Notes: generated by a model not told the origin, from the letters alone. Shown: positions 29,512-62,032, counted from the stretch's first letter. The stretch: 64,000 nt of DNA from Burkholderiaceae bacterium (GCA_014879655.1 JACSRS010000102.1:1617-65616), one strand, 5' to 3'. Program-made: numbers and translations.

Positions 29512-30150
29512 ATGAAAACCTGTTCAACACCGGACTTTTCCTCCGGCGCCGCTGTGCTCACGAGGGCGTCACTGGTGATCGCCCTGACCTTGGCAGCTGG
29601 CAGTGCTGCCGCCCAGGCCGACGAAGCCCGGGCGAAGAAGATCGTCAGCGGCGTTTGTTTTGTCTGCCATGGCATGGAGGGTGAATCGGCCAGCGAGGTG
29701 TTTCCGCGCCTGGCGGGCCAGCACTGGGAGTACATCGCCAAGCAGCTGGACAACTTCAAGTCCGGCAAGCGCAAGAGCACGGCGATGGCCGAAATGGTGG
29801 CCAAGCTGACGCCGGACGAAATGGCTGCGTTGGGCAAATATTTCGAAAAGCAGGCGGTACACCCTGAACCTGTCAAGGACAAGCCGCTGGCCGGGGTCGG
29901 GAGCTACATTTACCATCATGGCAACAAGTACAGCGCACTGCCCGCTTGCGTGAGCTGTCACGGGGAGGGCGCACTGGGCACCACCAGCCTGCCGCGCCTG
30001 GCCGGCCAGTACGCGGCCTACACCGAAAGCCAGCTCAAGCAGTTCAACCAGCGCGAGCGCACCAACGACAACGCGGTGATGCATTCGATCGCTGCCAAGA
30101 TGACGCCGCTGGAAATGGCAGCCGTGGCCGAATACCTCAGCGGCAAGTAA
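29512..30150 (+). CDS. Diheme cytochrome c4-type protein
   Basis: 212 aa. Signal peptide. Two heme motifs (CFVCHG, CVSCHG), each followed by a PRLAGQ box, as in cytochrome c4. Confidence 0.85.
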   Translation: MKTCSTPDFSSGAAVLTRASLVIALTLAAGSAAAQADEARAKKIVSGVCFVCHGMEGESASEVFPRLAGQHWEYIAKQLDNFKSGKRKSTAMAEMVAKLTPDEMAALGKYFEKQAVHPEPVKDKPLAGVGSYIYHHGNKYSALPACVSCHGEGALGTTSLPRLAGQYAAYTESQLKQFNQRERTNDNAVMHSIAAKMTPLEMAAVAEYLSGK

Positions 30151-30204: not shown

Positions 30205-31320
30205 TCAGGGTGCGCGCGTAGGGGCGGGTTGCAGCGAGGTATCGCCGGCGGGGGCAGCTGCGGGCTCGCGGTCGATCAGCCGATCGGTCAGGCCGGCGCC
30301 CAGCCACATGCCGAACAGCGACAACCAGGCGGTTAGCGCAAAGATGGCGCCACCGGTGACGCCGGCACCCACCGCGCAGCCACCGGCCAGCATGGCGCCA
30401 AAACCCATCAGCATCGCGCCGGCAATGTAGCGGCCCATGCTGTAGCCGTCTTTGAAGCCTTCGATCTTGAAGTCGCGGCCGATGAAGGCGCCGATCATCG
30501 AACCGAGAAACACGCCCGGCATCAGGCCGAAGTCGAAACCGATCGGCGGCGTCGGCGCATGCAGCACGCGCATCAGCCACTCGGCCGACGGTCCGCTGAA
30601 GGTCATGCCCTGGATTTTCACCACGCCAAACGACTCGCTGGCCACCGAATAAGAAAACCACCAGGCGGCAGCCACCGAAAGACCGGCGCCGATGCCGCCG
30701 AACCATTTCCAGGCGCCACCACCGCTGCGCAGGCCAAAAAACAGCGCCGCAGCCGCCCAGAGCAGGCCGAACAGCAGTGCGCCCTTGTGGCCGATACCGG
30801 TCAGCGCCAGCAGGTCGCGGGCCGAGCCGCCGTCGACGGTCCACCACAGGCTGATCGATTCGCGCAGCGGCGCCAACGCGCCGCCCAGTGCCGCCTGCGC
30901 GGTGACCGCAAACACCAGCCCTGACAGCAGCGCCCGCAGGTTGCCGTTGGCCGACAGCACCAGCAGGCGGCTGGCGCAGCCGCGGGTCAGGATCATGCCG
31001 ATGCCGAAAAGCAGCCCACCGACCAGTGCGCCCGACAGGCTGCCGCGACTGGCCAGTTGGCGGGCATCGCTGACGTCGAGCGCACCGGCCAGAATCAGCA
31101 ATTGCACGCCAACCACGGCTGAAGAGAAGGCCAGCAGCCAGACCGCCAGCTTGTCGCCGAAGCGACGGTGCCAGAATTCGATCACCGCCGCGCGCAGGCA
31201 GAAACGCGAGCGCTGTGCCGTGAAGCCAAACAGCGCACCGATCAGCGCACCGCCGGTGGCCAGCACGGCGGCGTCACCGTATCGTTCCATCAGGCTTGCC
31301 AGATTCACGCTGATCTCCAA
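30205..31320 (-). CDS. YeeE/YedE family membrane protein (sulfur compound / thiosulfate transport family)
   Basis: 371 aa polytopic protein. FGFTAQRSRFCLRAAV and TRGCASR motifs with conserved Cys, typical of YeeE/YedE. Confidence 0.8.
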   Translation of the reverse strand: MEISVNLASLMERYGDAAVLATGGALIGALFGFTAQRSRFCLRAAVIEFWHRRFGDKLAVWLLAFSSAVVGVQLLILAGALDVSDARQLASRGSLSGALVGGLLFGIGMILTRGCASRLLVLSANGNLRALLSGLVFAVTAQAALGGALAPLRESISLWWTVDGGSARDLLALTGIGHKGALLFGLLWAAAALFFGLRSGGGAWKWFGGIGAGLSVAAAWWFSYSVASESFGVVKIQGMTFSGPSAEWLMRVLHAPTPPIGFDFGLMPGVFLGSMIGAFIGRDFKIEGFKDGYSMGRYIAGAMLMGFGAMLAGGCAVGAGVTGGAIFALTAWLSLFGMWLGAGLTDRLIDREPAAAPAGDTSLQPAPTRAP

Positions 31321-31480: not shown

Positions 31481-32470
31481 ATGTATTCATTGCCCGTTTC
31501 CCGATGCCAGGCTGGCGCCGCAACGCGGTATTTGCGCGCGCTACTGGCTGCGCTGTGCCTGAGTCTGATGGCCCTCGCGCCTGCTCTGGCGCAGACAGTG
31601 CCGGAGATGAAGCCGGTGCAGGTATCTCCCTCCGCCTGGTACGTACAAGGTGTCTCGGCGCTGGGTTCGCCGGAAAACCAGAACTTCATCTCCAACGCTG
31701 CCTTCATCGTCACGCCGGCCGGGGTGGTGGTGATCGACGCGCTGGGCTCGCCGGCACTTGCCGAGCGACTGCTGGCTGCCATCCGGCAGATCACACCGCT
31801 ACCGGTCAAGTACGTTATCGTCACCCATTACCACGCCGACCATATCTACGGCCTGCAGGTCTTCAAGGCGCAGGGCGCAACGATTCTTGCGCACAAGGAA
31901 GGGCGGGACTACCTGAACTCGGACACCGCGCGCCAGCGGCTGGCGGCCTCGCGCGAAGACCTGGCGCCCTGGATTGACGCCAACACCCGACTGGTGCCGG
32001 CTGACCGCTGGCTTGATGCGGATGAAATGCTTGAGATCGGTGGCGTGAAGCTCTACATCCGCCACGTCGGCCCGTCGCACACCCCGGAAGACCAGGTCGT
32101 CTGGATGCCGCATGAGAAAGTGCTATTTGCCGGTGACCTGGTGTTTCGCAGCCGCATTCCGTTTGTCGGGCAGGCCGACAGCGGCCACTGGATCAAGGCT
32201 CTGGACCAGCTGCTGGCTTTCGACGCGACCACCATCGTGCCCGGCCACGGCCCGATCTCCACCGAGGCGCGCAAGGACATGCAGCTGACGCGCGACTATC
32301 TGATCTACTTGCGCAAGACCATGCGTCAGGCGGCGCTCAATCTGGACCCGTTTGAAGACGCCTATAACGCGGCTGACTGGACGCCCTTTGAGCACCTGCC
32401 GCTGTTCCGTGCGGCCAACCGCATGAATGCCTACAACACCTACCTGCTGATGGAGCGCGAAGCCAAATGA
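31481..32470 (+). CDS. Periplasmic MBL-fold metallo-hydrolase (SoxH-like), paralogue 1
   Basis: Real gene is the last 330 codons of track ORF 30692..32470 (the upstream part is antisense to yeeE). Signal peptide ...LMALAPALAQ. Intact HxHxDH motif THYHADH. Later HTPED and PGHG. Confidence 0.8.
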   Translation: MYSLPVSRCQAGAATRYLRALLAALCLSLMALAPALAQTVPEMKPVQVSPSAWYVQGVSALGSPENQNFISNAAFIVTPAGVVVIDALGSPALAERLLAAIRQITPLPVKYVIVTHYHADHIYGLQVFKAQGATILAHKEGRDYLNSDTARQRLAASREDLAPWIDANTRLVPADRWLDADEMLEIGGVKLYIRHVGPSHTPEDQVVWMPHEKVLFAGDLVFRSRIPFVGQADSGHWIKALDQLLAFDATTIVPGHGPISTEARKDMQLTRDYLIYLRKTMRQAALNLDPFEDAYNAADWTPFEHLPLFRAANRMNAYNTYLLMEREAK

Positions 32471-32976
32471 CCACCTTCGAATCCCGGTGCGACACCAGCG
32501 GCCTGACCCGGCGCCAGCTGCTGTCTGCCGCTGCGTTCACCGCTGCTGTGCCCGCAGCAGGCGTTGCGCGGGCTGCCGGTGCGGTGCTGCCGGTGGCCGG
32601 ATCGCTGCCGGACGAGTTGAACCGGGCCCTGGCCAAAGGGCAACCGCTGGTGGTGATGGTCAGCCTGAAAGGTTGCCCGTTCTGCGAAGTGGCCCGCAGC
32701 AACTATCTGGCGCCGATGCTGCGCGAAGGGCAGATCGAGGTGGTGCAGGTGGACATGCGCACCAGCCTGCCCTTGACGGATTTCCAGGGCAAGGCGCTGA
32801 CCCATGAAGACATGGTGCGCCAGTGGAAGATCAGCATCGCCCCCACGGTGCTGTTCTTCGGCAAGGGCGGCGTGGAAGCGGCCGACCGGCTGGTCGGCGG
32901 TTATCTGCCCGACTTTTACGGTGCTTACCTCGACGCCCGGCTGGCACAGGCCCGGCAGCGGGTGGCTCGCGGCTGA
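32467..32976 (+). CDS. Periplasmic thioredoxin-fold protein (SoxS-like)
   Basis: 169 aa. Tat-type signal TRRQLLSAAAFTAAVPAAGVARA. CPFC redox motif in VMVSLKGCPFCEV. ATGA overlap with the MBL gene. Confidence 0.7.
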   Translation: MTTFESRCDTSGLTRRQLLSAAAFTAAVPAAGVARAAGAVLPVAGSLPDELNRALAKGQPLVVMVSLKGCPFCEVARSNYLAPMLREGQIEVVQVDMRTSLPLTDFQGKALTHEDMVRQWKISIAPTVLFFGKGGVEAADRLVGGYLPDFYGAYLDARLAQARQRVARG

Positions 32977-33045
32977 TTTTTGGATGGTTTTCAAGACATT
33001 TTGGCATCAACCCGGCGTCAAATGGTCGTTTTTTGCTACCAATCG
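32974..33045 (+). repeat. Copy B of the dispersed gene-3'-end repeat (shorter, lacks an obvious hairpin)
   Basis: TGATTTTTGGATGGTTTTCAAGACATTTTGGCATCAACCCGGCGTCAAATGGTCGTTTTTTGCTACC. Starts at the stop codon of the SoxS-like gene. Confidence 0.75.
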
Positions 33046-33120
33046 AGTAGTAAAAGCCTGTGGTGTCGCCAGCCGAAGCATGGCCGGGCGAGGACGGTTG
33101 ACCGAGGCGAACCCGCAGCC

Positions 33121-33290
33121 CATTCCCGCTCCGCTTCCAGATAGGTGCGACGGGCGTTGCCGCTCGCCAGGACGGTGGCGTTCAGCGGTAACGGCCGGCG
33201 GGCTCTACCGAAAGGTCGAAGTTGGCACGCAGGTAACTTTGCCACTTGGGAGAATTTCAAGTCAGCTTGCGGCTTGAATCGCGGACTTGC
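33121..33290 (-). pseudogene. Orphan C-terminal relic of an MBL-hydrolase paralogue
   Basis: Minus-strand translation ...DLKFSQVAKLP...PLNATVLASGNARRTYLEAERE matches the C-termini of the two intact MBL genes (...LLNAAELAPGNASRTYLEVERE*). The stop is lost and there is no upstream catalytic part. Confidence 0.5.
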
Positions 33291-33482
33291 TTTCGCGCGG
33301 GTTTGTTGCCGCCAGCGTCGTTCCCCGGGCATACTTGGGCGGAACTTTCTTCTCCGTCGCCACTCGCAACGGCAGCCCTGTTGCTCCGTTCTCGTGCTAT
33401 TTGAACTTTTCTCCGGTTTCAGCTGAGGAGAAGGCGCCAAACAGCGATATTTTTATCGGGCCGGATCAATCGCTCATATTTC

Positions 33483-34415
33483 ATGTCAATACCAATACTG
33501 ATGCCTTCACATTCGCAGGCTCGTCGAAAGTTCATGTCCCAGGCGGCCGCCATTTCTGGTGCGGCCGTGTTGCCAACGATCCTGATCGGCTGCGGATCGG
33601 CAGACAGCGCCGTCTTCCCCATGACATCCAGACAGCAGGTGCTGGCTGCCGGAACATTCGGCGAACTGCAAAAACCCTGGTACCGATCGGACACTTTGAC
33701 GCTGCGTCGCCCCGACGGGACGACCGCAAGCTATGGCGGCTCACACAAGGCACTGAATGTTCCAACCTCTGCCGCTGTGTCACCGGATGGATCATTCTGG
33801 GTGGCGGATACCGGCAATCGTCGAATCCTGCATCTGAGCCATTCGTTGCAACCCATTGGGGAAATCACGGAAGTTTCCGGCAAGCGGTTTTCGCGGCCAA
33901 CGGGTGTTGCGATTCTGGAGGACGGACGTCTCGCAGTCAGTGATCAACTCCTCGGAAAAGTCGCCGTTGCCAGCCCAGATAGTGGGCAAGGCATTTGGAC
34001 GGGTATCAGCGCAGACGACCATGTCGGAACGGGCTGGGTGCCCCATTGGGAGACTGAAACCGATCACCGTGTTCTTGAGGATCCAAGGTTTATCCATGCC
34101 GCCCCGGATGGCAAGCTCGTTGTTCTTGATATCTCGGTGGCTCGACTGGTCTTGTTCTCATCGTCTACCGGGCAGGCTTTAGACGCCATTCGACTCCCGG
34201 GTCGCCCGGCAGATATCGCCATCGGGCCGGACGGCGCCTGCTATGTGTTTGACAAGGTCAAAAAGTCAGTAAGCCAAGTCAGTTTGAAGACCCGCAGCGT
34301 TGATGCAGTCCTGAGTGCGGCGCAGATATCTCAATTTCCGGGTTCGCCCGATCGGATTGTCTGGAGCATCGGATCGGGCCCCGAAATCTCCAATCTCCTG
34401 ATTTCATATCGATAA
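33483..34415 (+). CDS. NHL-repeat beta-propeller protein, predicted Tat-exported lipoprotein
   Basis: 310 aa. Twin-arginine motif ARRKFMSQAAAISGAAVL followed by lipobox LIGC. Repeated NHL-like units (PTSAAVSPDGSFWVADTGNRRI, PTGVAILEDGRLAVSD, PRFIHAAPDGKLVVLD, PADIAIGPDGACYVFD). Confidence 0.7.
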   Translation: MSIPILMPSHSQARRKFMSQAAAISGAAVLPTILIGCGSADSAVFPMTSRQQVLAAGTFGELQKPWYRSDTLTLRRPDGTTASYGGSHKALNVPTSAAVSPDGSFWVADTGNRRILHLSHSLQPIGEITEVSGKRFSRPTGVAILEDGRLAVSDQLLGKVAVASPDSGQGIWTGISADDHVGTGWVPHWETETDHRVLEDPRFIHAAPDGKLVVLDISVARLVLFSSSTGQALDAIRLPGRPADIAIGPDGACYVFDKVKKSVSQVSLKTRSVDAVLSAAQISQFPGSPDRIVWSIGSGPEISNLLISYR

Positions 34416-34722
34416 CCAATAAGAATTGGTGGTTTTCCCTCGAATTGCGATAAAGCAATAAACTCTGGAGATTCGGGATTTGTTTTGGCGACGATTCTGA
34501 AAAGCCGATTACCAAAAATGAAACTTTATTCGATGTGGTTAAAAATAACCAGGGCGGCGGCGAGATTGAAAAATATGCATTTAGCAGACCGAATCTGCCG
34601 GTTGAATTTGATAACTATCGGTATTTGAGTGCTCCGGATTGAATTTATTCAGGACTCCTTTGATTTTTCATTCCGACTTTATCCGACTGAAATATAAAAC
34701 ATGTGATACTTTAAGGGTGTAA

Positions 34723-35580
34723 ATGGCGACCATCGGACAACTCGTAATATTGGCAAACGGAGCAAATGTGGATCCTTCCACCGGATTCATGCCTTGCGAT
34801 TGGCGAATCCTCAAAATCAGTGATTATCCTGCCTTGTTTGAAGTAATTGGCCATGCTTTCAGTCCGAGTTACAGTGACGAGCATTTTCATTTGCCAAACA
34901 CAATTCCGCTTCCTGCTGGTCTGCAATATCCAGCAAGCTATTGCATATGCACGAACGGAACCGCTCCCACTGCGCCAGCGCCGACTGGAGTTCTCGGACG
35001 AATCGAGAGATTTGCATTCCAGCCGGCATTACCATTGCCCATAGGGTGGAGTCGACCTGCAAACCAGCAAGCCATACCTGCTAACTATCATCCCTGCGAT
35101 GGCAGCATTTTTCAGATTGTCGATAATGAAGCGTTTTTCAGTATTATCGGCTTCAATTTCGGCGGTGATGGAATGAATACGTTCGCATTGCCCAACGTGC
35201 CAACTGATCCTGATTTCTATTGGTCGATGCCACACGGTGGTTATTGCATGGATACAGGAATAAATGGAGATGATTTATATCCCGATTCGGCAGGAGGAAT
35301 AACTTTGGATGACGATTATATTGGCCAGATCATGCTGAGCGGCTTTGGTTATGGCGGCTATGGTTTTGATCGTGGTAATCCGATTAATGTATTTCGATGC
35401 GATGGACAGGTGCTGAATGCAGCGGAGTGGCCGAATTTGTATTATGTCTTGACCGGTAATTCAGGCTTGATTGACAAAAGCACTACGTTCAAGATTCCTA
35501 AATTAAATCCGATTTCTTCATTGAGGGAGGCGGTATATTATATTGTGGCTGATGGACTATATCCAACGGAGATCTCTTAA
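34723..35580 (+). CDS. Protein of three tandem phage tail-collar (Collar, MdpB-like) domains
   Basis: 285 aa, low GC, no signal peptide. Three repeats of the Collar pattern: IGQLVIL...PCDWRILKISDYPALFEVIGHAF...FHLPN; GRIERFAF...PCDGSIFQIVDNEAFFSIIGFNFGGDGMNTFALPN; IGQIMLSGF...RCDGQVLNAAEWPNLYYVL...FKIPKL. Confidence 0.8.
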   Translation: MATIGQLVILANGANVDPSTGFMPCDWRILKISDYPALFEVIGHAFSPSYSDEHFHLPNTIPLPAGLQYPASYCICTNGTAPTAPAPTGVLGRIERFAFQPALPLPIGWSRPANQQAIPANYHPCDGSIFQIVDNEAFFSIIGFNFGGDGMNTFALPNVPTDPDFYWSMPHGGYCMDTGINGDDLYPDSAGGITLDDDYIGQIMLSGFGYGGYGFDRGNPINVFRCDGQVLNAAEWPNLYYVLTGNSGLIDKSTTFKIPKLNPISSLREAVYYIVADGLYPTEIS

Positions 35581-35709
35581 CGGGTCATCCCGGAAAATCG
35601 CACCGGCAGGCGGCTGAGAAAATAAATTTTGCAGGGGCGACTCCTCAAGTGCGCGTGATACTGAAAGGTCAGTCGCCACCTTTTTTTCGTTTTCAGAGGG
35701 ACCTGCGCT

Positions 35710-36681
35710 CTACTCCCGCTCCACTTCCAGATAGGTGCGACTGGCGTTGCCGGGCGCCAGCTCGGCAGCGTTGAGCAGCCCCATCCAGCGGGCGCCGTCG
35801 AACGAACGGACGGCGGCGCTGACGTCCACGCCGTCATCCACCGCCTTCTTCATGTGCGCGCGCAGCGCCAGCAGGTAGTCGCGCGTCTGCAGGCGCGCGA
35901 CAGCCAGCGTGGTGACCGAGCCATGGCCGGGCACGATGATGGCGGGCTGCAGCGATTCGACCCGCGCAAGACTGGCCAGCCAGGCGCGGGTGTTGCTGAC
36001 CGGGATCACGCCCAGCATGCGGTCGACGTAGATCACGTCGCCGGAAAACAGCACGCCGGCCTGCGGCAGCCAGACCAGGAGATCGCCGGGGGTATGACCG
36101 CCACCGGCGTGGTGCAGTTCGATCACGGTGCCGCCCAGGTTCAGACGCTCGACAGGCCCTTCGATCCAGCGCGCGGGCAGCACGGCGGTGGTGCCTTCGG
36201 CAGCTGGCCCCAGCAGTGTGCGCAGGCTGGCCAGCTGCTCACCGCCGCGCGACTGCATGTCGGTGCGGGCGTTGGTGTGGGCGATCAGCTGGGCACCCGT
36301 GCCCTTAAAGTAACTGTTGCCCAGCCAGCGGTGGTCTTGCCCGCCGGTGTTGATGACCCAGCGCAGCGGCTGCGAGGTGACGGCTTTCACCGCGTCGTGG
36401 ATCTTGCGGGCCGAAGCAAAGGTGGCCCCGCTGTCGATCAGCACTGCACCGGCCGGGGTGACGACCAGGCCGATGTTGGCGTTGAGCCCCTCGTTCTCGA
36501 CGCTGCGGCCACCCTTGTCTCCGATATGGGCATAGACGCCGGGTGCCACGGGCTCGAAACGCACCTCCAGCGCCCGCGCGGGCTGTGAGAAAAAGCCGAC
36601 GGTGGCCACCAGCATCAGCAAGAGCGTGCGAAGCGCTGAAGGAAGCAGGGGGGGTGTCATCGGGTTTTTCGGCTTTTTCAT
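35710..36681 (-). CDS. Periplasmic MBL-fold protein, paralogue 2 with degenerate HxHxDH motif
   Basis: Clear paralogue of 31481..32470 (VTPAGAVLIDSGA..., HHAGGGHTPGD, VPGHG). The zinc motif reads TGGQDH instead of THYHADH. Signal peptide ...FFSQPARA. Possible starts 36702, 36681, 36660. Confidence 0.8.
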   Translation of the reverse strand: MKKPKNPMTPPLLPSALRTLLLMLVATVGFFSQPARALEVRFEPVAPGVYAHIGDKGGRSVENEGLNANIGLVVTPAGAVLIDSGATFASARKIHDAVKAVTSQPLRWVINTGGQDHRWLGNSYFKGTGAQLIAHTNARTDMQSRGGEQLASLRTLLGPAAEGTTAVLPARWIEGPVERLNLGGTVIELHHAGGGHTPGDLLVWLPQAGVLFSGDVIYVDRMLGVIPVSNTRAWLASLARVESLQPAIIVPGHGSVTTLAVARLQTRDYLLALRAHMKKAVDDGVDVSAAVRSFDGARWMGLLNAAELAPGNASRTYLEVERE

Positions 36682-36925
36682 ATGTTTTTCGGCTTTATCC
36701 ATCGTCAGTTGGTGTTATTTTGCTATGATAAAAGGACTGTTCGGCGGCTCGCAACTGCCTTGCAACAGCCGTCCGGACTGACGCCCGCAACAGTTTGCTG
36801 CCGCTCAGATCCCGATTGTCGGCGAGCGCTACGGCCGTTTCAGATGAAGAGCGGGCCTTGGGCACAATCGGGGCCTGAGACTTTCCCCGATCCATCCCCT
36901 GTACCGCCTTTGAAGGAATTCTGTC

Positions 36926-37702
36926 ATGCCGCTCGTCGTTTTCAACCAGAAGGGAGGCGTCGGCAAGTCGACGATCACCTGCAACCTGGCCGCCATCAGT
37001 GCCAGCCAGGGCCATCGCACGCTGGTGATTGATCTGGACCCGCAAGGAAACTCCAGCGCCTACCTGCTGGGTGACAGCGCGCAGGACGACCAGCCGACGG
37101 TGGCCGATTTTTTTGAAAACACGCTGAGCTTCAGCCTGCGCGGCCCGGCGCCGGACGAATACACCGTGGCGACGCCGCACGACAACCTGCGTGTGATGGC
37201 GTCCAGCCCTGCGCTGGATGCGCTGCAGACCAAGCTCGAATCGCGCCACAAGATCTACAAGCTGCGCGAGGCCTTGCAAAAGCTCGCCGACAACTACGAC
37301 CGCATTTACATCGACACGCCGCCCGCGCTGAACTTTTACACCCGCTCAGCGCTGATCGCTGCACGCGGCTGCTTGATTCCGTTCGACTGCGACGAGTTTT
37401 CGCGCAAGGCGTTGTACACGCTGATGGAAAACGTCGAGGAAATCCGCGCGGACCACAACCCCGAACTGCAGATCGACGGCATCGTCGTCAACCAGTTCCA
37501 GCCGCGCGCCAACCTGCCGCAGCGCGTCGTACAGGAGCTGATCGACGAAGGCCTGCCGGTGCTGGAGCCCTACCTGCCGTCATCGGTGCGCATCCGCGAA
37601 TCGCATGAACAGTCGTTGCCGATGATCTGGCTGGACCCGGGCCACAAGCTGACGCTGGCGCTGGTGGAACTGCACGAGGCGATTGAGGCCGGGCGGGGGT
37701 GA
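36926..37702 (+). CDS. ParA/Soj-family P-loop ATPase (orphan, no parB seen)
   Basis: 258 aa. Deviant Walker A FNQKGGVGKSTI, then LVIDLDPQGN and IYIDTPPAL. Confidence 0.9.
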   Translation: MPLVVFNQKGGVGKSTITCNLAAISASQGHRTLVIDLDPQGNSSAYLLGDSAQDDQPTVADFFENTLSFSLRGPAPDEYTVATPHDNLRVMASSPALDALQTKLESRHKIYKLREALQKLADNYDRIYIDTPPALNFYTRSALIAARGCLIPFDCDEFSRKALYTLMENVEEIRADHNPELQIDGIVVNQFQPRANLPQRVVQELIDEGLPVLEPYLPSSVRIRESHEQSLPMIWLDPGHKLTLALVELHEAIEAGRG

Positions 37703-37788
37703 GCGGCCGGGATCGCTGGCGGATCGCACGGGTTTGACGCCAGCGGTTGCCAGAAGCATCCCGGGATGCCATGCTAGGGGCTCCAGCC

Positions 37789-39633
37789 ATGAAGGACGAA
37801 CGCCCGACCCCTGCCACCCGTACCGAGTCCGCCGCAGACCGGGCCCGCTGCGTTGACGCGGTGCTGGCGCGCCATGCCGGCCGGCGTGACCGGCTGGTGC
37901 AGATCCTGCGGGAGTTGCAGATCGAGACGCGCTGGCTGCCCCGCGAGGCGTTGGCACGTGTGGCGGCCGGCGTCGGGTTGACACCGGCCATCGTCGAGGG
38001 CGTCGCCAGCTTCTACCGCTTTTTTCACCTGCGACCGGTCGGTCGCTACCACCTGCTGTTCAGCGACAACATCACCGACCAGATGGCCGGCAGCCGCATG
38101 CTCGCGCAGGAGCTTTGCCGCCGGCTGGGCGTGACGGCGGGCGGCGCGCCGTCCGCTGATGGGCTGGTCAGCGTCGGTTATGCCTCGTGCATCGGCCTGG
38201 GCGACCACGCGCCGGCCGTGCTGGTGAACCAGCAGCAGGTGCTGACCCGGCTCGACAGCCCGCGCATTGCCGAACTGGCCGACCTGCTGCTCGCGCGGGT
38301 GCCGGTGTCGCAGTGGCCGCCGTCGTGGCAGCAGGTCGATGCGACGGTGCACCGCGCCGGGCCCTTGCTGGGCAGCGCGCCGCTGCAAGGCAGCGCCTTG
38401 CGGGCCGTGCTGGCGCGCGGGGTGGACGCGACACTCGACGAAATCGGGCATTCGCGCCTGCGCGGCCGCGGCGGCGCGGGTTTTTCCACGTCGGCCAAGT
38501 GGCGCCTGTGCCGCTCCGCAGCGGTCGCGCCGACACAAACCCGGGTGGTCGTCTGCAACGCGGACGAGGGCGAGCCCGGCACGTTCAAGGACCGCGTGCT
38601 GCTGGCGCGGCAGGCCGACACGGTGTTCGAGGGCATGACCGTCGCGGCGCGGCTGCTCGATGCGCGCCTGGGTTTCGTCTACCTGCGCGGGGAGTACGCG
38701 CATCTGCATGCGGCCCTGCTGGACGTGCTGGCGCGCCGGCGCGCGGCCGCCCTGCTGGGGCGTTCCATCCTTGGCGTCGAGGGTTTTGACTTCGACATCG
38801 AGATTCACCTGGGCGCCGGTGCCTACGTCTGCGGCGAAGAGAGCTCACTGATCGAATCGCTGGAGGGCAAGCGCGGCACACCGCGCATCCGGCCGCCGTT
38901 TCCGGTGGAGCGGGGCTATATGGGCCAGCCGACCGTTGTGAACAACGTCGAAACCTTCTGCGCCGCCGCCCACATCGCCGAACAGGGCGGGGCCTGGTGG
39001 GCCGGCATGGGCACCGCGGCCAGCAGCGGCAGCAAACTGCATTCGGTCAGCGGCGACTGCGCACGCCCCGGCGTCTATGAATACCCGTTCGGCGTCAGCG
39101 TGGCCGACATCCTGCACGACTGCGGTGCCGAGCGTACGCAGGGGGTGCAGGTGGGCGGGCCCTCGGGTCTGTGTCTGGCCGCGCACGAGTTTGGCCGCCA
39201 CATCGGATTCGACGATGTGCCCACCGCCGGCGCCTTCATGGTTTTTGATGAATCGCGCGACATGTTTGAAGTGACGCGCAACTTCGCCCACTTTTTTGCG
39301 CATGAGAGCTGTGGCTTCTGTACTCCCTGCCGGGTGGGGACCGAACTGGTGGTGCGGCGGCTTGACAAGCTTGCGGCCGGTTACGGTTCGCTGTTCGACG
39401 AGAACGAGCTGCGCGAGCTGGAAGCCCTGCTGCATGGCAGCACGCATTGCGGGCTCGGCGCCACCGCCACCAACCCGTTGCGTGACACCTTGTTGCGCTT
39501 TCGTCCGGCCTACGAGCGGCGATTGCTCTCGCCCCGGTTCACGCCGGCTTTCGACCTGGACGCTGAGTTGGAAGTGGCGCGCCGCGTCACGGGCCGCACC
39601 GATGCCGGTGCCCACCTGGATCGACGCGGATGA
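37789..39633 (+). CDS. hoxF: NAD-reducing [NiFe] hydrogenase diaphorase large subunit HoxF (NuoE+NuoF-like)
   Basis: GRGGAGFSTSAKW (NADH site), GAGAYVCGEESSLIESLEG (FMN site), ESCGFCTPCRVG (4Fe-4S). NuoE-like N-terminal part. ATG 37789 has an AGGGG RBS; the track TTG start is 37747. Confidence 0.9.
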   Translation: MKDERPTPATRTESAADRARCVDAVLARHAGRRDRLVQILRELQIETRWLPREALARVAAGVGLTPAIVEGVASFYRFFHLRPVGRYHLLFSDNITDQMAGSRMLAQELCRRLGVTAGGAPSADGLVSVGYASCIGLGDHAPAVLVNQQQVLTRLDSPRIAELADLLLARVPVSQWPPSWQQVDATVHRAGPLLGSAPLQGSALRAVLARGVDATLDEIGHSRLRGRGGAGFSTSAKWRLCRSAAVAPTQTRVVVCNADEGEPGTFKDRVLLARQADTVFEGMTVAARLLDARLGFVYLRGEYAHLHAALLDVLARRRAAALLGRSILGVEGFDFDIEIHLGAGAYVCGEESSLIESLEGKRGTPRIRPPFPVERGYMGQPTVVNNVETFCAAAHIAEQGGAWWAGMGTAASSGSKLHSVSGDCARPGVYEYPFGVSVADILHDCGAERTQGVQVGGPSGLCLAAHEFGRHIGFDDVPTAGAFMVFDESRDMFEVTRNFAHFFAHESCGFCTPCRVGTELVVRRLDKLAAGYGSLFDENELRELEALLHGSTHCGLGATATNPLRDTLLRFRPAYERRLLSPRFTPAFDLDAELEVARRVTGRTDAGAHLDRRG

Positions 39634-40364
39634 GCCCGCCGGCCGGCAATCATTTCAGTCTGGACGGGCTGGCCGTGCCCTTCGAGGGCGGTGAGACCCT
39701 GATGGCGGCCGCTACCCGCGCCGGGCAGTATGTGCCGCACCTGTGCTGGCACCCGACGCTGGGGCAGAGCGGCGCCTGCCGACTGTGCATCGTCAGCGTC
39801 GACGGGCGGATGGCGGCGGCCTGCACCACGCCCGCGGCAGCCGGGCAGGTGGTGGAAAACCGACGTCCCGACATCGATGCCCGGCGCAGGATGCTGTTGC
39901 AGATGCTGTTTGTGGAAGGCAATCATTTCTGCCCCAGCTGCGAGAAGAGCGGCGACTGCCTGCTGCAGGCCACCGGCTACGAAATGGGCATGACGGGGCC
40001 GCAGTTCGAGGAGTTCTATCCGAAGCGCGCCGTCGATGCCAGCCATCCCGACACGTGGATCGATTTCAACCGTTGCATCCAGTGCAAGCTGTGCGTGCGC
40101 GCCAGTCACGAAATCGATCACAAGGACGTGTTCGCCATCGGTGGTCATGGCATCGATTCGCACCTGCTGGTCAATTCACCCAGCGGCCAGTTGGGCGACA
40201 GCGTGTTCAGCGCCGACGACTTTGCTGCCACGGTGTGCCCGGTGGGCGCCATCCTGCCCAAACGCAGGGGATTTGTGGTCCCGATCGGCGAGCGGCGCTT
40301 TGACCGCGCTGCGATCAGCGAGATGCCTGCCACCCGAAAGGAGGCTGATGATGGACCGCGATGA
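39630..40364 (+). CDS. hoxU: Hydrogenase diaphorase small Fe-S subunit HoxU (NuoG N-terminal-like)
   Basis: 244 aa. 2Fe-2S and 4Fe-4S cysteine clusters (CRLCIVSVDG, CPSCEKSGDCLLQ, CIQCKLCVRA). ATGA overlap with hoxF. Confidence 0.9.
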   Translation: MSPPAGNHFSLDGLAVPFEGGETLMAAATRAGQYVPHLCWHPTLGQSGACRLCIVSVDGRMAAACTTPAAAGQVVENRRPDIDARRRMLLQMLFVEGNHFCPSCEKSGDCLLQATGYEMGMTGPQFEEFYPKRAVDASHPDTWIDFNRCIQCKLCVRASHEIDHKDVFAIGGHGIDSHLLVNSPSGQLGDSVFSADDFAATVCPVGAILPKRRGFVVPIGERRFDRAAISEMPATRKEADDGPR

Positions 40365-61957: not shown

Positions 61958-62032
61958 TGGTACCACCGACAGGAATCGAACCTGTATCTGAGACTTAGGA
62001 GGTCCCCGTTCTATCCATTGAACTACGGCGGC
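61958..62032 (-). tRNA. tRNA-Arg (anticodon CCU)
   Basis: Reverse complement folds by hand into a cloverleaf: GCCGCCG-TA-GTTC-AATGGATA-GAAC-G-GGGAC-CTCCTAA-GTCTC-AGAT-ACAGG-TTCGATT-CCTGT-CGGTGGT-A-CCA. The acceptor stem has two G-U pairs. CCA is encoded. Confidence 0.85.

Follow-up and report, generated by a model that had tools for sequence, protein, structure and literature searches.

Within a stretch of 64,000 nucleotides (nt) of DNA from Burkholderiaceae bacterium (GCA_014879655.1 JACSRS010000102.1:1617-65616; the whole stretch is referred to below as the window, and coordinates are those of the window unless a contig is named), positions 33083–35709 form a strain-variable islet, in which a diverged stump of a metallo-beta-lactamase (MBL)-type gene lies beside foreign cargo with two genes, one for an NHL protein and one for a collar-domain protein. 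We hold, with a probability of roughly 60%, that stump and cargo were imported together from an unsampled relative by recombination guided by homology. An earlier reading of the window without database searches (the sequence-only reading) had taken this region for an insertion bracketed by a duplicated MBL-gene 3′ end, left either by an element that integrated there or by foreign DNA that replaced most of a tandem MBL paralogue. On the comparisons given below, the bracketing repeat, although it resembles an attachment (att) site, is best read as a xenologous gene remnant.

Empty sites and boundaries of the islet

Empty sites, the check that had been proposed for an insertion, were found in a near-identical contig and in a sister lineage. 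The former, L179 (JGI 3300014348), has the order HoxF-ParA-MBL2, 143 nt, SoxS-like, MBL1, and is ~ 99.5–99.9% identical to the window in both flanks (2 mismatches in 1,407 nt on the left, window 31676–33082, and 25 in 4,516 nt on the right, window 35710–40225). The sister lineage, represented by L181 (Logan) and L184 (ENA ERZ795035), is 92–95% identical and also empty, with 141-nt gaps; L184 shares its sample with insert-bearing contigs. A further contig, from ERZ22666135, has the gene order of L179 with a 141-nt gap, as judged from gene positions. Near-identical strains whose flanks are colinear differ in whether they carry the islet. When the cargo and MBL2 proteins were looked up by exact match, every contig returned had the insert haplotype; the empty sites came via members of 90%-identity clusters of the flanking proteins. 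A search with MBL2 in species-representative genomes (orthologues 54–70% identical) and JGI metagenome contigs gave best matches of 66–71%, which were usable for synteny and too distant for defining boundaries or a donor.

Relative to L179, the insert comprises 2,627 nt (33083–35709) in place of 37 nt of intergenic DNA. At its left boundary (33082/33083), identity to L179 falls from 100% to ~ 70% within one nucleotide; the sequence passes from identical to diverged but alignable, with no indel, and the junction lies inside homologous sequence. Between 33083 and 33136, 17 of 54 positions differ from the empty-site allele. The right junction (35709/35710) is of another kind: the tail of the insert shows no relation to the 37 native nt that were replaced (7/37 matches to L179 and 10/37 to L181, a random level), and 37 nt of recipient DNA have been lost. 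From 35710 rightwards, the window equals L179 for 330 nt (35710–36039, 100%), so the right copy of the bracketing repeat, which falls within these positions, is the native allele. The islet, its parts and the features next to it are as follows.

32467–32976, plus strand: SoxS-like periplasmic thioredoxin gene, 169 amino acids (aa) (PF13098 Thioredoxin_2, E = 3e-6)
32977–33082: native intergenic DNA, 106 nt, identical to empty-site L179
33083–33119, minus strand: a′, diverged copy of the 37 nt 3′ of the MBL2 stop in empty-site strains, part of the putative imported block
33120–33212, minus strand: m′, orphan relic comprising the 3′-terminal 31 codons of an MBL2-type gene, a pseudogene fragment
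33213–33482: non-coding leader between relic and NHL gene, 270 nt, 54% guanine + cytosine (GC)
33483–34415, plus strand: NHL gene, cargo gene 1, 310 aa
34416–34722: AT-rich spacer between the cargo genes, 307 nt, 38% GC
34723–35580, plus strand: collar gene, cargo gene 2, 285 aa
35581–35709: b, tail of the insert, 129 nt, abutting the MBL2 stop codon
35710–36702, minus strand: intact resident MBL2, SoxH-like MBL-fold gene, 330 aa (PF00753, E = 1.7e-16)

The islet sits inside a sulfur-oxidation cluster, in the short spacer between the convergent SoxS-like and MBL2 genes. The sequence-only reading was right about the insertion and imprecise about its position, which it had placed between sulfur-oxidation and hydrogenase genes; the ParA-like and HoxF-like genes lie beyond MBL2. 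In L179, L181 and L184, the empty site is bordered by the SoxS-like gene, as it is in relatives from Polaromonas and Rhodoferax. In these distant relatives (Polaromonas L023 and L029, Rhodoferax L049 and L057), in L058 and in metagenome contig L131, MBL2 converges on the SoxS-like gene, with 62–119 nt separating the matches to the two genes; MBL1 follows the SoxS-like gene in all of them, as do the YeeE and/or cytochrome c genes in most. The same convergent spacer holds one 457-aa open reading frame (ORF) in a Polaromonas metagenome-assembled genome (MAG; L052, 3648–5254) and one 234-aa ORF in a Burkholderiaceae MAG (L092, 10952–11660), and may be a recurrent landing place.

Haplotypes and recombination at the locus

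Because at least four independent assemblies from JGI, ENA and Logan, made with different pipelines, span both junctions at 99–100% identity, the structure of the insert is not an assembly artefact. Contigs break at both junctions, which is a signature of assembly-graph branches: L178 ends at 33082, and L009–L011 start at 33028/33034 (55-nt overlap); L003 and L180 end at 35710, and L007, L008, L010, L011 and L013 end at 35733–35764. Several contigs thus end at 35733–35764 or begin at 35710, as expected where the graph branches at the stop codon of MBL2. Coverage of insert and flank contigs, taken from the contig record names, was 11.8/21.9 in ERZ795037, 5.9/8.9 in ERZ795033 and 16.2/16.6 in ERZ795035. 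These data suggest that insert-bearing and empty haplotypes coexist in samples.

That the segment is ancestral and was lost elsewhere by deletion, or is an assembly or binning artefact, has a probability close to negligible in our judgement, even though direct repeats could mediate a deletion and the window does come from a MAG. Besides the agreement among assemblies, a deletion would leave a′ in place together with the part of m′ nearest the stop, and L179, L181 and L184 all carry the native ‘a/m’ type there. The empty sites were likewise rejected as products of excision, since recombination between the repeat copies would keep a′, which the empty alleles do not carry. The third-codon-position GC (GC3) of the cargo genes, 43–59% against ~ 83%, argues for a recent foreign origin.

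The single-nucleotide polymorphisms (SNPs) that separate the right flank from L179 are unevenly placed, 19 of the 25 being clustered in 36040–36397, inside MBL2; this 358-nt tract is ~ 5% divergent from L179, against ~ 0.1% elsewhere, and neither allele is closer there to the outgroup L181. L180 provides a third mosaic, window-like at 36040–36046, L179-like at 36174–36385 and unique at 36427–36607. The cluster has the appearance of recombination tracts within the gene, and the mosaic of MBL2 alleles among strains suggests that homologous recombination is active at this locus.

The repeat pair and the nature of the relic

A repeat search returned one direct-repeat pair (33111–33212 and 35701–35802; 102 nt, 75% identity, 2,590 nt apart), and BLASTN within the window aligned 33124–33186 with 35714–35776 (63 nt, 85.7% identity, E = 1.3e-14). 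The two same-orientation copies of ~ 65 nt described by the sequence-only reading are therefore real, as is their core of 37 identical nucleotides out of 39. The longest exact run is 18 nt. Starting at the stop codon, the copies agree at 38/42 positions and, cumulatively, at 71/93 (76%), in frame and without indels, and the similarity fades out beyond ~ 93–100 nt. No inverted repeats were found in 32900–36000. The right copy (35710–35802) is the 3′ end of the intact 330-aa MBL2, and the left copy, which reads ...ASGNARRTYLEAEREW, is an orphan in which the stop TAG has become TGG; both assignments had been made correctly from the sequence alone. In addition, the left copy shows residue changes (PGN to SGN, ASR to ARR and EL to VL) at sites that are near-invariant in 79 orthologues.

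The relic proved to be diverged from every sampled allele. a′ matches L179 at 23/37 positions and L181/L184 also at 23/37, while L179 and L181 match each other at 30/37; m′ matches the resident gene end and L179 at 71/93 and L181/L184 at 68/93, and L179 and L181 agree at 87/93. Among the 13 sites that differ between L179 and L181, the relic agrees with L179 at five, with L181 at two and with neither at six. By these counts, it is an outgroup to both empty-site lineages, themselves 5–8% apart. Compared with 79 orthologue ends from other genera, m′ reached at most 67% identity. The best matches to the relic among all fetched loci were the MBL2 ends of L179, L180 and L181 (80–86% over 63–85 nt), and other genera gave mostly ~ 74–80% over 60–70 nt, with higher identity over shorter stretches only. 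Because the best matches are still these MBL2 ends, the source of the relic is placed by sequence comparison within this clade, in a relative outside the sampled diversity. The leader that follows (33213–33482), set in register with MBL2, matches it at a random level (5/23 and 31/140), and gave no BLASTN match to any fetched locus.

Duplication of the MBL2 end in place, followed by decay, was rejected as impossible on the time scale, because the carrier is ~ 99.5% identical to L179 (99.5–99.9% across the flanks) and yet the relic falls outside both L179 and L181. Nor is the orphan the displaced native end that an integration would leave: a′ and m′ are 62% and 76% identical to native sequence, while the DNA adjoining them on the left is identical. 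This pattern, a diverged orphan beside left DNA that is identical, cannot result from conservative site-specific recombination at a site of the L179 type.

A remnant of a tandem MBL2 paralogue, the proximal copy having been overwritten by foreign DNA except for its terminal 93 nt, would account for the relic being of MBL2 rather than MBL1 type and closer to the resident MBL2 lineage than to the 79 orthologues, and its ~ 24% divergence lies within the orthologue range (47–83% identity). We nevertheless judge it very unlikely for this genome. None of the ten relatives with a convergent MBL2/SoxS-like arrangement, among them the near-identical strain and the 92–95% sister lineage, carries a tandem MBL2. 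Since a′ and m′ align without indels, the former stop of the relic lies 143 nt from the SoxS-like stop, just as the real stop does in L179, which is the end position of a single gene. Moreover, the 37 nt downstream are diverged too and switch sharply to identity, which points to import and not to decay in place. Replacement of most of an MBL gene, as the sequence-only reading had offered for a tandem paralogue, does still appear plausible in an unsampled donor.

Composition

The DNA between the repeat copies has a GC content of 50.5%, against 64.4% for the window, and the lowest-GC stretches of both 858 and 2,500 nt in the whole window fall in the insert, in keeping with the marked drop first seen by eye. 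For the collar gene, low GC was confirmed, and the earlier estimate in the low 40s was slightly below the measured 46.0% (GC3 43%); the spacer at 34416–34722, described as AT-rich, has 38.1%. The NHL gene has 57.1% GC and a GC3 of 59%. With GC3 values of 79–85% in six flanking genes, this atypical composition is as expected of a horizontally acquired islet, and judged by composition the cargo DNA is foreign. The GC content of the relic m′ is 69.6%.

Integrative elements and related systems

Given foreign DNA between same-orientation repeats whose 37/39 core includes 18 exactly matching nt and lies at the very end of a gene that stays intact, an integrative element comes readily to mind. In this account, a circular element with a mimic of the MBL2 3′ end would have integrated site-specifically, left att repeats and later lost its integrase. 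The elements e14 and phage 21 integrate into Escherichia coli icd and leave the 3′ pseudogene icdC (Hill et al. 1989, described in PMC13626634). The islet shares its layout with icd-e14-icdC (PMC13626634): an intact gene whose function is kept, foreign DNA, and an orphan 3′ fragment of that gene in the same orientation. The higher identity of the relic near the stop (38/42, against 33/51 further on) could mark an old crossover core, and an 18-nt exact run with 76% identity over 93 nt would fit a core that is old and decayed but is not diagnostic of one.

Several observations make a decayed element of the e14 or transfer RNA (tRNA)-island type unlikely at this site. Within the insert, no recombinase families were found in Pfam, NCBIfam or PHROGs scans, and integrases and recombinases are absent both from the insert and from the called genes over ~ 6 kb to its left and 3.5 kb to its right; that neither an integrase nor a transposase lies inside, where gene scans gave only two credible genes, had been noted from the start. 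Sequence distal to the core should be host-native, yet 3 of the 17 nt to the stop and 14 of the 37 beyond it differ, after which identity is 100%. Beside the intact gene, the 37 nt that natively follow the stop of MBL2 are gone, which makes the event a replacement and not a reciprocal exchange, and the empty alleles cannot be excision products for the reason given above. In e14, moreover, an integrase is present and the element excises; the functional 3′ end of icd comes from the element, and icdC, followed by further host sequence, is the host’s own end. At the islet, MBL2 has kept its native end, and it is the orphan, along with its 37 downstream nt, that is non-native. An e14-type origin may apply only to the first event, in the unsampled donor.

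Islands at the 3′ ends of tRNA genes, and integrase-less remnants of the cis-mobilisable element (CIME) type, are bracketed by direct repeats of the gene 3′ end with foreign cargo between them. The islet differs from these in its protein-coding target, in repeats that are 76–90% identical with a longest exact run of 18 nt, in having no recombinase and in a flank beyond the distal repeat that is not host-type. The ‘tRNA-3′ island logic’ invoked by the sequence-only reading failed on the intact gene, whose 3′ end is 100% identical to the empty-site allele and was neither replaced nor supplied by an element. A transposon or insertion sequence was rejected as well, as there is no transposase and no inverted repeat in 32900–36000, and a diverged repeat of ~ 100 nt stands against the usual duplication of 2–14 bp.

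Origin of the islet

The account we favour has two steps. In the first, set in an unsampled relative that shares the locus, low-GC DNA with the NHL and collar genes would have become linked to the final 93 nt of MBL2, the cargo either taking the place of the donor gene body or displacing its 3′ end, and the stump would then have decayed as a pseudogene. In the second, recombination would have carried the block of stump and cargo into the present species, with the homologous locus as its guide. A crossover in the homologous spacer would have formed the left junction; the right one, at the MBL2 stop, would stem from an illegitimate join facilitated by homology or, just as possibly, from a crossover in the highly conserved nucleotides with which MBL2 ends. 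Both copies of the ‘repeat’ would then be the same gene end from two lineages, set side by side with no duplication.

For type VI secretion system (T6SS), Rhs and contact-dependent inhibition (CDI) effector loci, it has been proposed that orphaned gene 3′ ends, left when modules are displaced, arise by homology-facilitated illegitimate recombination (Kirchberger et al. 2017, PMC5361080; de Vries & Wackernagel 2002 cited there). As in those loci, foreign DNA lies here beside a conserved gene, with no mobility genes and with one homologous junction, and a diverged, non-functional 3′ fragment accompanies an intact copy in a strain-polymorphic manner. The islet differs in having no toxin/immunity logic and no orphan array, and in an intact gene that is wholly the recipient’s allele; its orphan apparently travelled with the cargo instead of being left by the recipient.

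Several points count against this account. Step 1 and the structure of the donor are what we infer, because the protein collection held no MBL2 homologue of 73–92% identity that could represent a candidate donor. The uneven identity of the relic would also fit an old recombination core or gene conversion. For the right junction to fall exactly at the stop codon, coincidence would have to combine with selection, or the crossover would have to be limited to the first conserved nucleotides. Finally, a GC-rich relic joined to low-GC cargo means that the block is itself a mosaic, which takes at least two events.

The kind of event proposed is an ordinary one, a small strain-variable islet that arose by recombination-mediated horizontal transfer. 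Its interest lies in a repeat that resembles an attachment site and yet appears to be the gene remnant of another lineage, as the near-identical empty-site allele shows directly, and this calls for caution in calling islands from repeats and GC content alone. It would also illustrate how accessory genes move between related sulfur oxidisers through recombination at a shared locus without mobility genes. The islet further draws attention to a rare, uncharacterised pair of an NHL and a triple-collar gene; current concepts are left unchanged.

The two cargo genes

The insert contains two credible genes, which form a rare and uncharacterised pair, in agreement with the earlier description of the cargo as two genes of unknown role. 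The first product matches PF01436 NHL (E = 2.4e-12), with one NHL repeat above threshold and a profile of the beta-propeller type. Read from the start at 33483, its N-terminus (ARRKFM...AVLPTILIGC) shows a twin-arginine (RR) motif, a hydrophobic region and a lipobox cysteine; these motifs, read by eye, predict a lipoprotein with a twin-arginine translocation (Tat) signal. Only three close homologues were found among 5.8 billion proteins (67%, 51% and 52% identity), and all three (L094, L182 and L183) keep both the RR motif and the lipobox cysteine. Public annotation gives the NHL protein 293 aa (264 aa in JGI) and starts it 3′ of the twin-arginine motif; translation from the ATG at 33483 gives 310 aa and brings back the RR signal and lipobox conserved in the homologues.

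The second product, which has no signal peptide, matches PF07484 Collar over three stretches of one chain (E = 2.6e-28; 98.2 bits against a cut-off of 24 bits). Two close full-length homologues were found (53% and 48% identity), and a search of 1.84 billion representatives gave four proteins below 1e-30, with ~ 2,400 sharing the domain. An AlphaFold2 (AF2) model built from an 11-sequence alignment was fairly confident, with a mean predicted local distance difference test (pLDDT) score of 75 and a predicted template modelling (pTM) score of 0.78, and was used in place of one from a 3-sequence alignment (pLDDT 29). Foldseek of this model against the PDB gave no significant match; its only structural neighbours were the T4 short tail fibre gp12 (best E = 0.13) and a cyanophage tail fibre, both with non-significant scores, and a PDB sequence search with the protein gave only E ~ 0.2, again to gp12. 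The weakness of the Foldseek scores is probably due to the reference collar fold being an intertwined trimer.

Three significant PF07484 stretches place the protein with the collar-domain proteins, which include the COG4675 MdpB-like ‘microcystin-dependent proteins’ and the receptor-binding domain of T4 gp12, and its weak structural matches are likewise to tail-fibre receptor-binding domains. It is set apart from them by three repeats fused in one 285-aa chain, a partner gene for an NHL lipoprotein, and neighbourhoods of sulfur-oxidation genes with no phage genes. A tblastn search with the collar protein against 50,697 phage records gave no match, nor did the phage and plasmid collections searched. 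PHROGs returned weak partial matches to tail-fibre/collar and a few virion-structural families, each covering one repeat. A prophage remnant was rejected, given these weak matches, the phage records without a match and the non-phage neighbours of the homologues.

The spacer between the two genes (34416–34722) is missing from the homologous pairs, which have gaps of 15 nt (L094) and 58 nt (L182). It holds one open frame of ~ 60 codons without an ATG (…LWRFGICFGDDSEKPITKNETLFDVVKNNQGGGEIEKYAFSRPNLPVEFDNYRYLSAPD*), and may be a gene remnant or a secondary insertion. An Rfam scan of 32400–37000 produced sub-threshold small nucleolar RNA (snoRNA) noise only, with nothing at gathering score; a promoter and terminator scan found nothing convincing in the spacer, and none of the spacers folded better than shuffles. 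In tail b, a short hairpin followed by a T-run can be read from the sequence on the plus strand (~ 35664–35694), and may serve as terminator of the collar transcript; the terminator scan did not call it as a candidate, and its fold was not better than shuffles.

Genomic context of the pair and its possible function

NHL and collar genes are also adjacent in L094/L095 (~ 55% GC) and in L182 (65% GC), and the collar gene is lower in GC than the NHL gene in each pair. In L094/L095, the neighbours encode cytochromes c, an SQR-type flavoprotein and two rhodaneses. In L096/L097 (L096, 1463–4003), the 53% collar homologue has no NHL partner and follows genes for a TsdA-like dihaem cytochrome and a DsrE-like protein (193 aa, a weak match), the latter with an N-terminal RR-type signal (ARRKML). 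In either arrangement, the signal-less collar gene comes after one whose product bears a Tat-type signal. By these contexts, the NHL and collar genes constitute a rare conserved pair that recurs beside sulfur-oxidation genes in unrelated contigs. A literature search for ‘tail collar domain’ with ‘sulfur oxidation’ found no papers.

Our best guess, of low confidence, is that the pair forms a Tat-exported complex of the cell envelope with a part in the metabolism of reduced sulfur, and the collar protein may be exported together with its Tat-signal NHL partner (‘hitchhiking’), which is a guess. Against this functional picture stand the small number of gene contexts behind the sulfur link, three or four only, and the fact that hitchhiking is guessed from signal motifs identified by eye. 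Taken further, the pair could be an accessory module for sulfur oxidation in the periplasm that moves horizontally and has so far gone unrecognised, in which a phage receptor-binding fold was recruited, perhaps with co-export by Tat hitchhiking, to bind or handle a sulfur species or an envelope component, and which strains gain or lose by transfer between sulfur oxidisers guided by a homologous locus; we regard this as decidedly unlikely as a whole.

Surrounding genes and minor observations

From left to right, the locus contains cytochrome c, YeeE, MBL1 and SoxS-like genes, the insert, and MBL2, ParA-like and HoxF-like genes, with a flavocytochrome c sulfide dehydrogenase gene further left, as seen on contig L178. 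The genes outside the SoxS-like and MBL2 pair are as follows.

29512–30150: cytochrome c gene
30205–31320, minus strand: YeeE-type sulfur transporter gene
31481–32470: SoxH-like MBL1 gene, its end overlapping the start of the SoxS-like gene
36926–37702: ParA-like ATPase gene
37747–39633: HoxF-like hydrogenase diaphorase gene

The label ‘SoxH-like’ given to MBL2 expresses resemblance only, as its NCBIfam scores of 161 bits for TIGR04559 (cut-off 280) and 159 bits for TIGR04558 (cut-off 300) are both under the curated cut-offs. The NCBI MAG annotates MBL2 as 301 aa and the SoxS-like gene as 151 aa, both shorter than the ORFs used here. The gene for a stand-alone ParA-family ATPase keeps its position between MBL2 and the HoxF-like gene in insert-bearing and empty-site strains alike, and neither a ParB partner nor plasmid genes were seen near it.

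Only one tRNA gene lies in the window, a minus-strand tRNA-Arg(CCT) at 61958–62032, and it adjoins a modest GC dip (55%, ~ 61751). A contig of the same species from JGI 3300014349 (L001/L004) showed two short unalignable blocks, at 31699–31828 and 30211–30324, together with 46 scattered mismatches. The blocks fall at the 5′ end of MBL1, which is called there as 212 aa, and at the end of the YeeE-like gene, and by this comparison the sulfur cluster shows more strain-level micro-variation.

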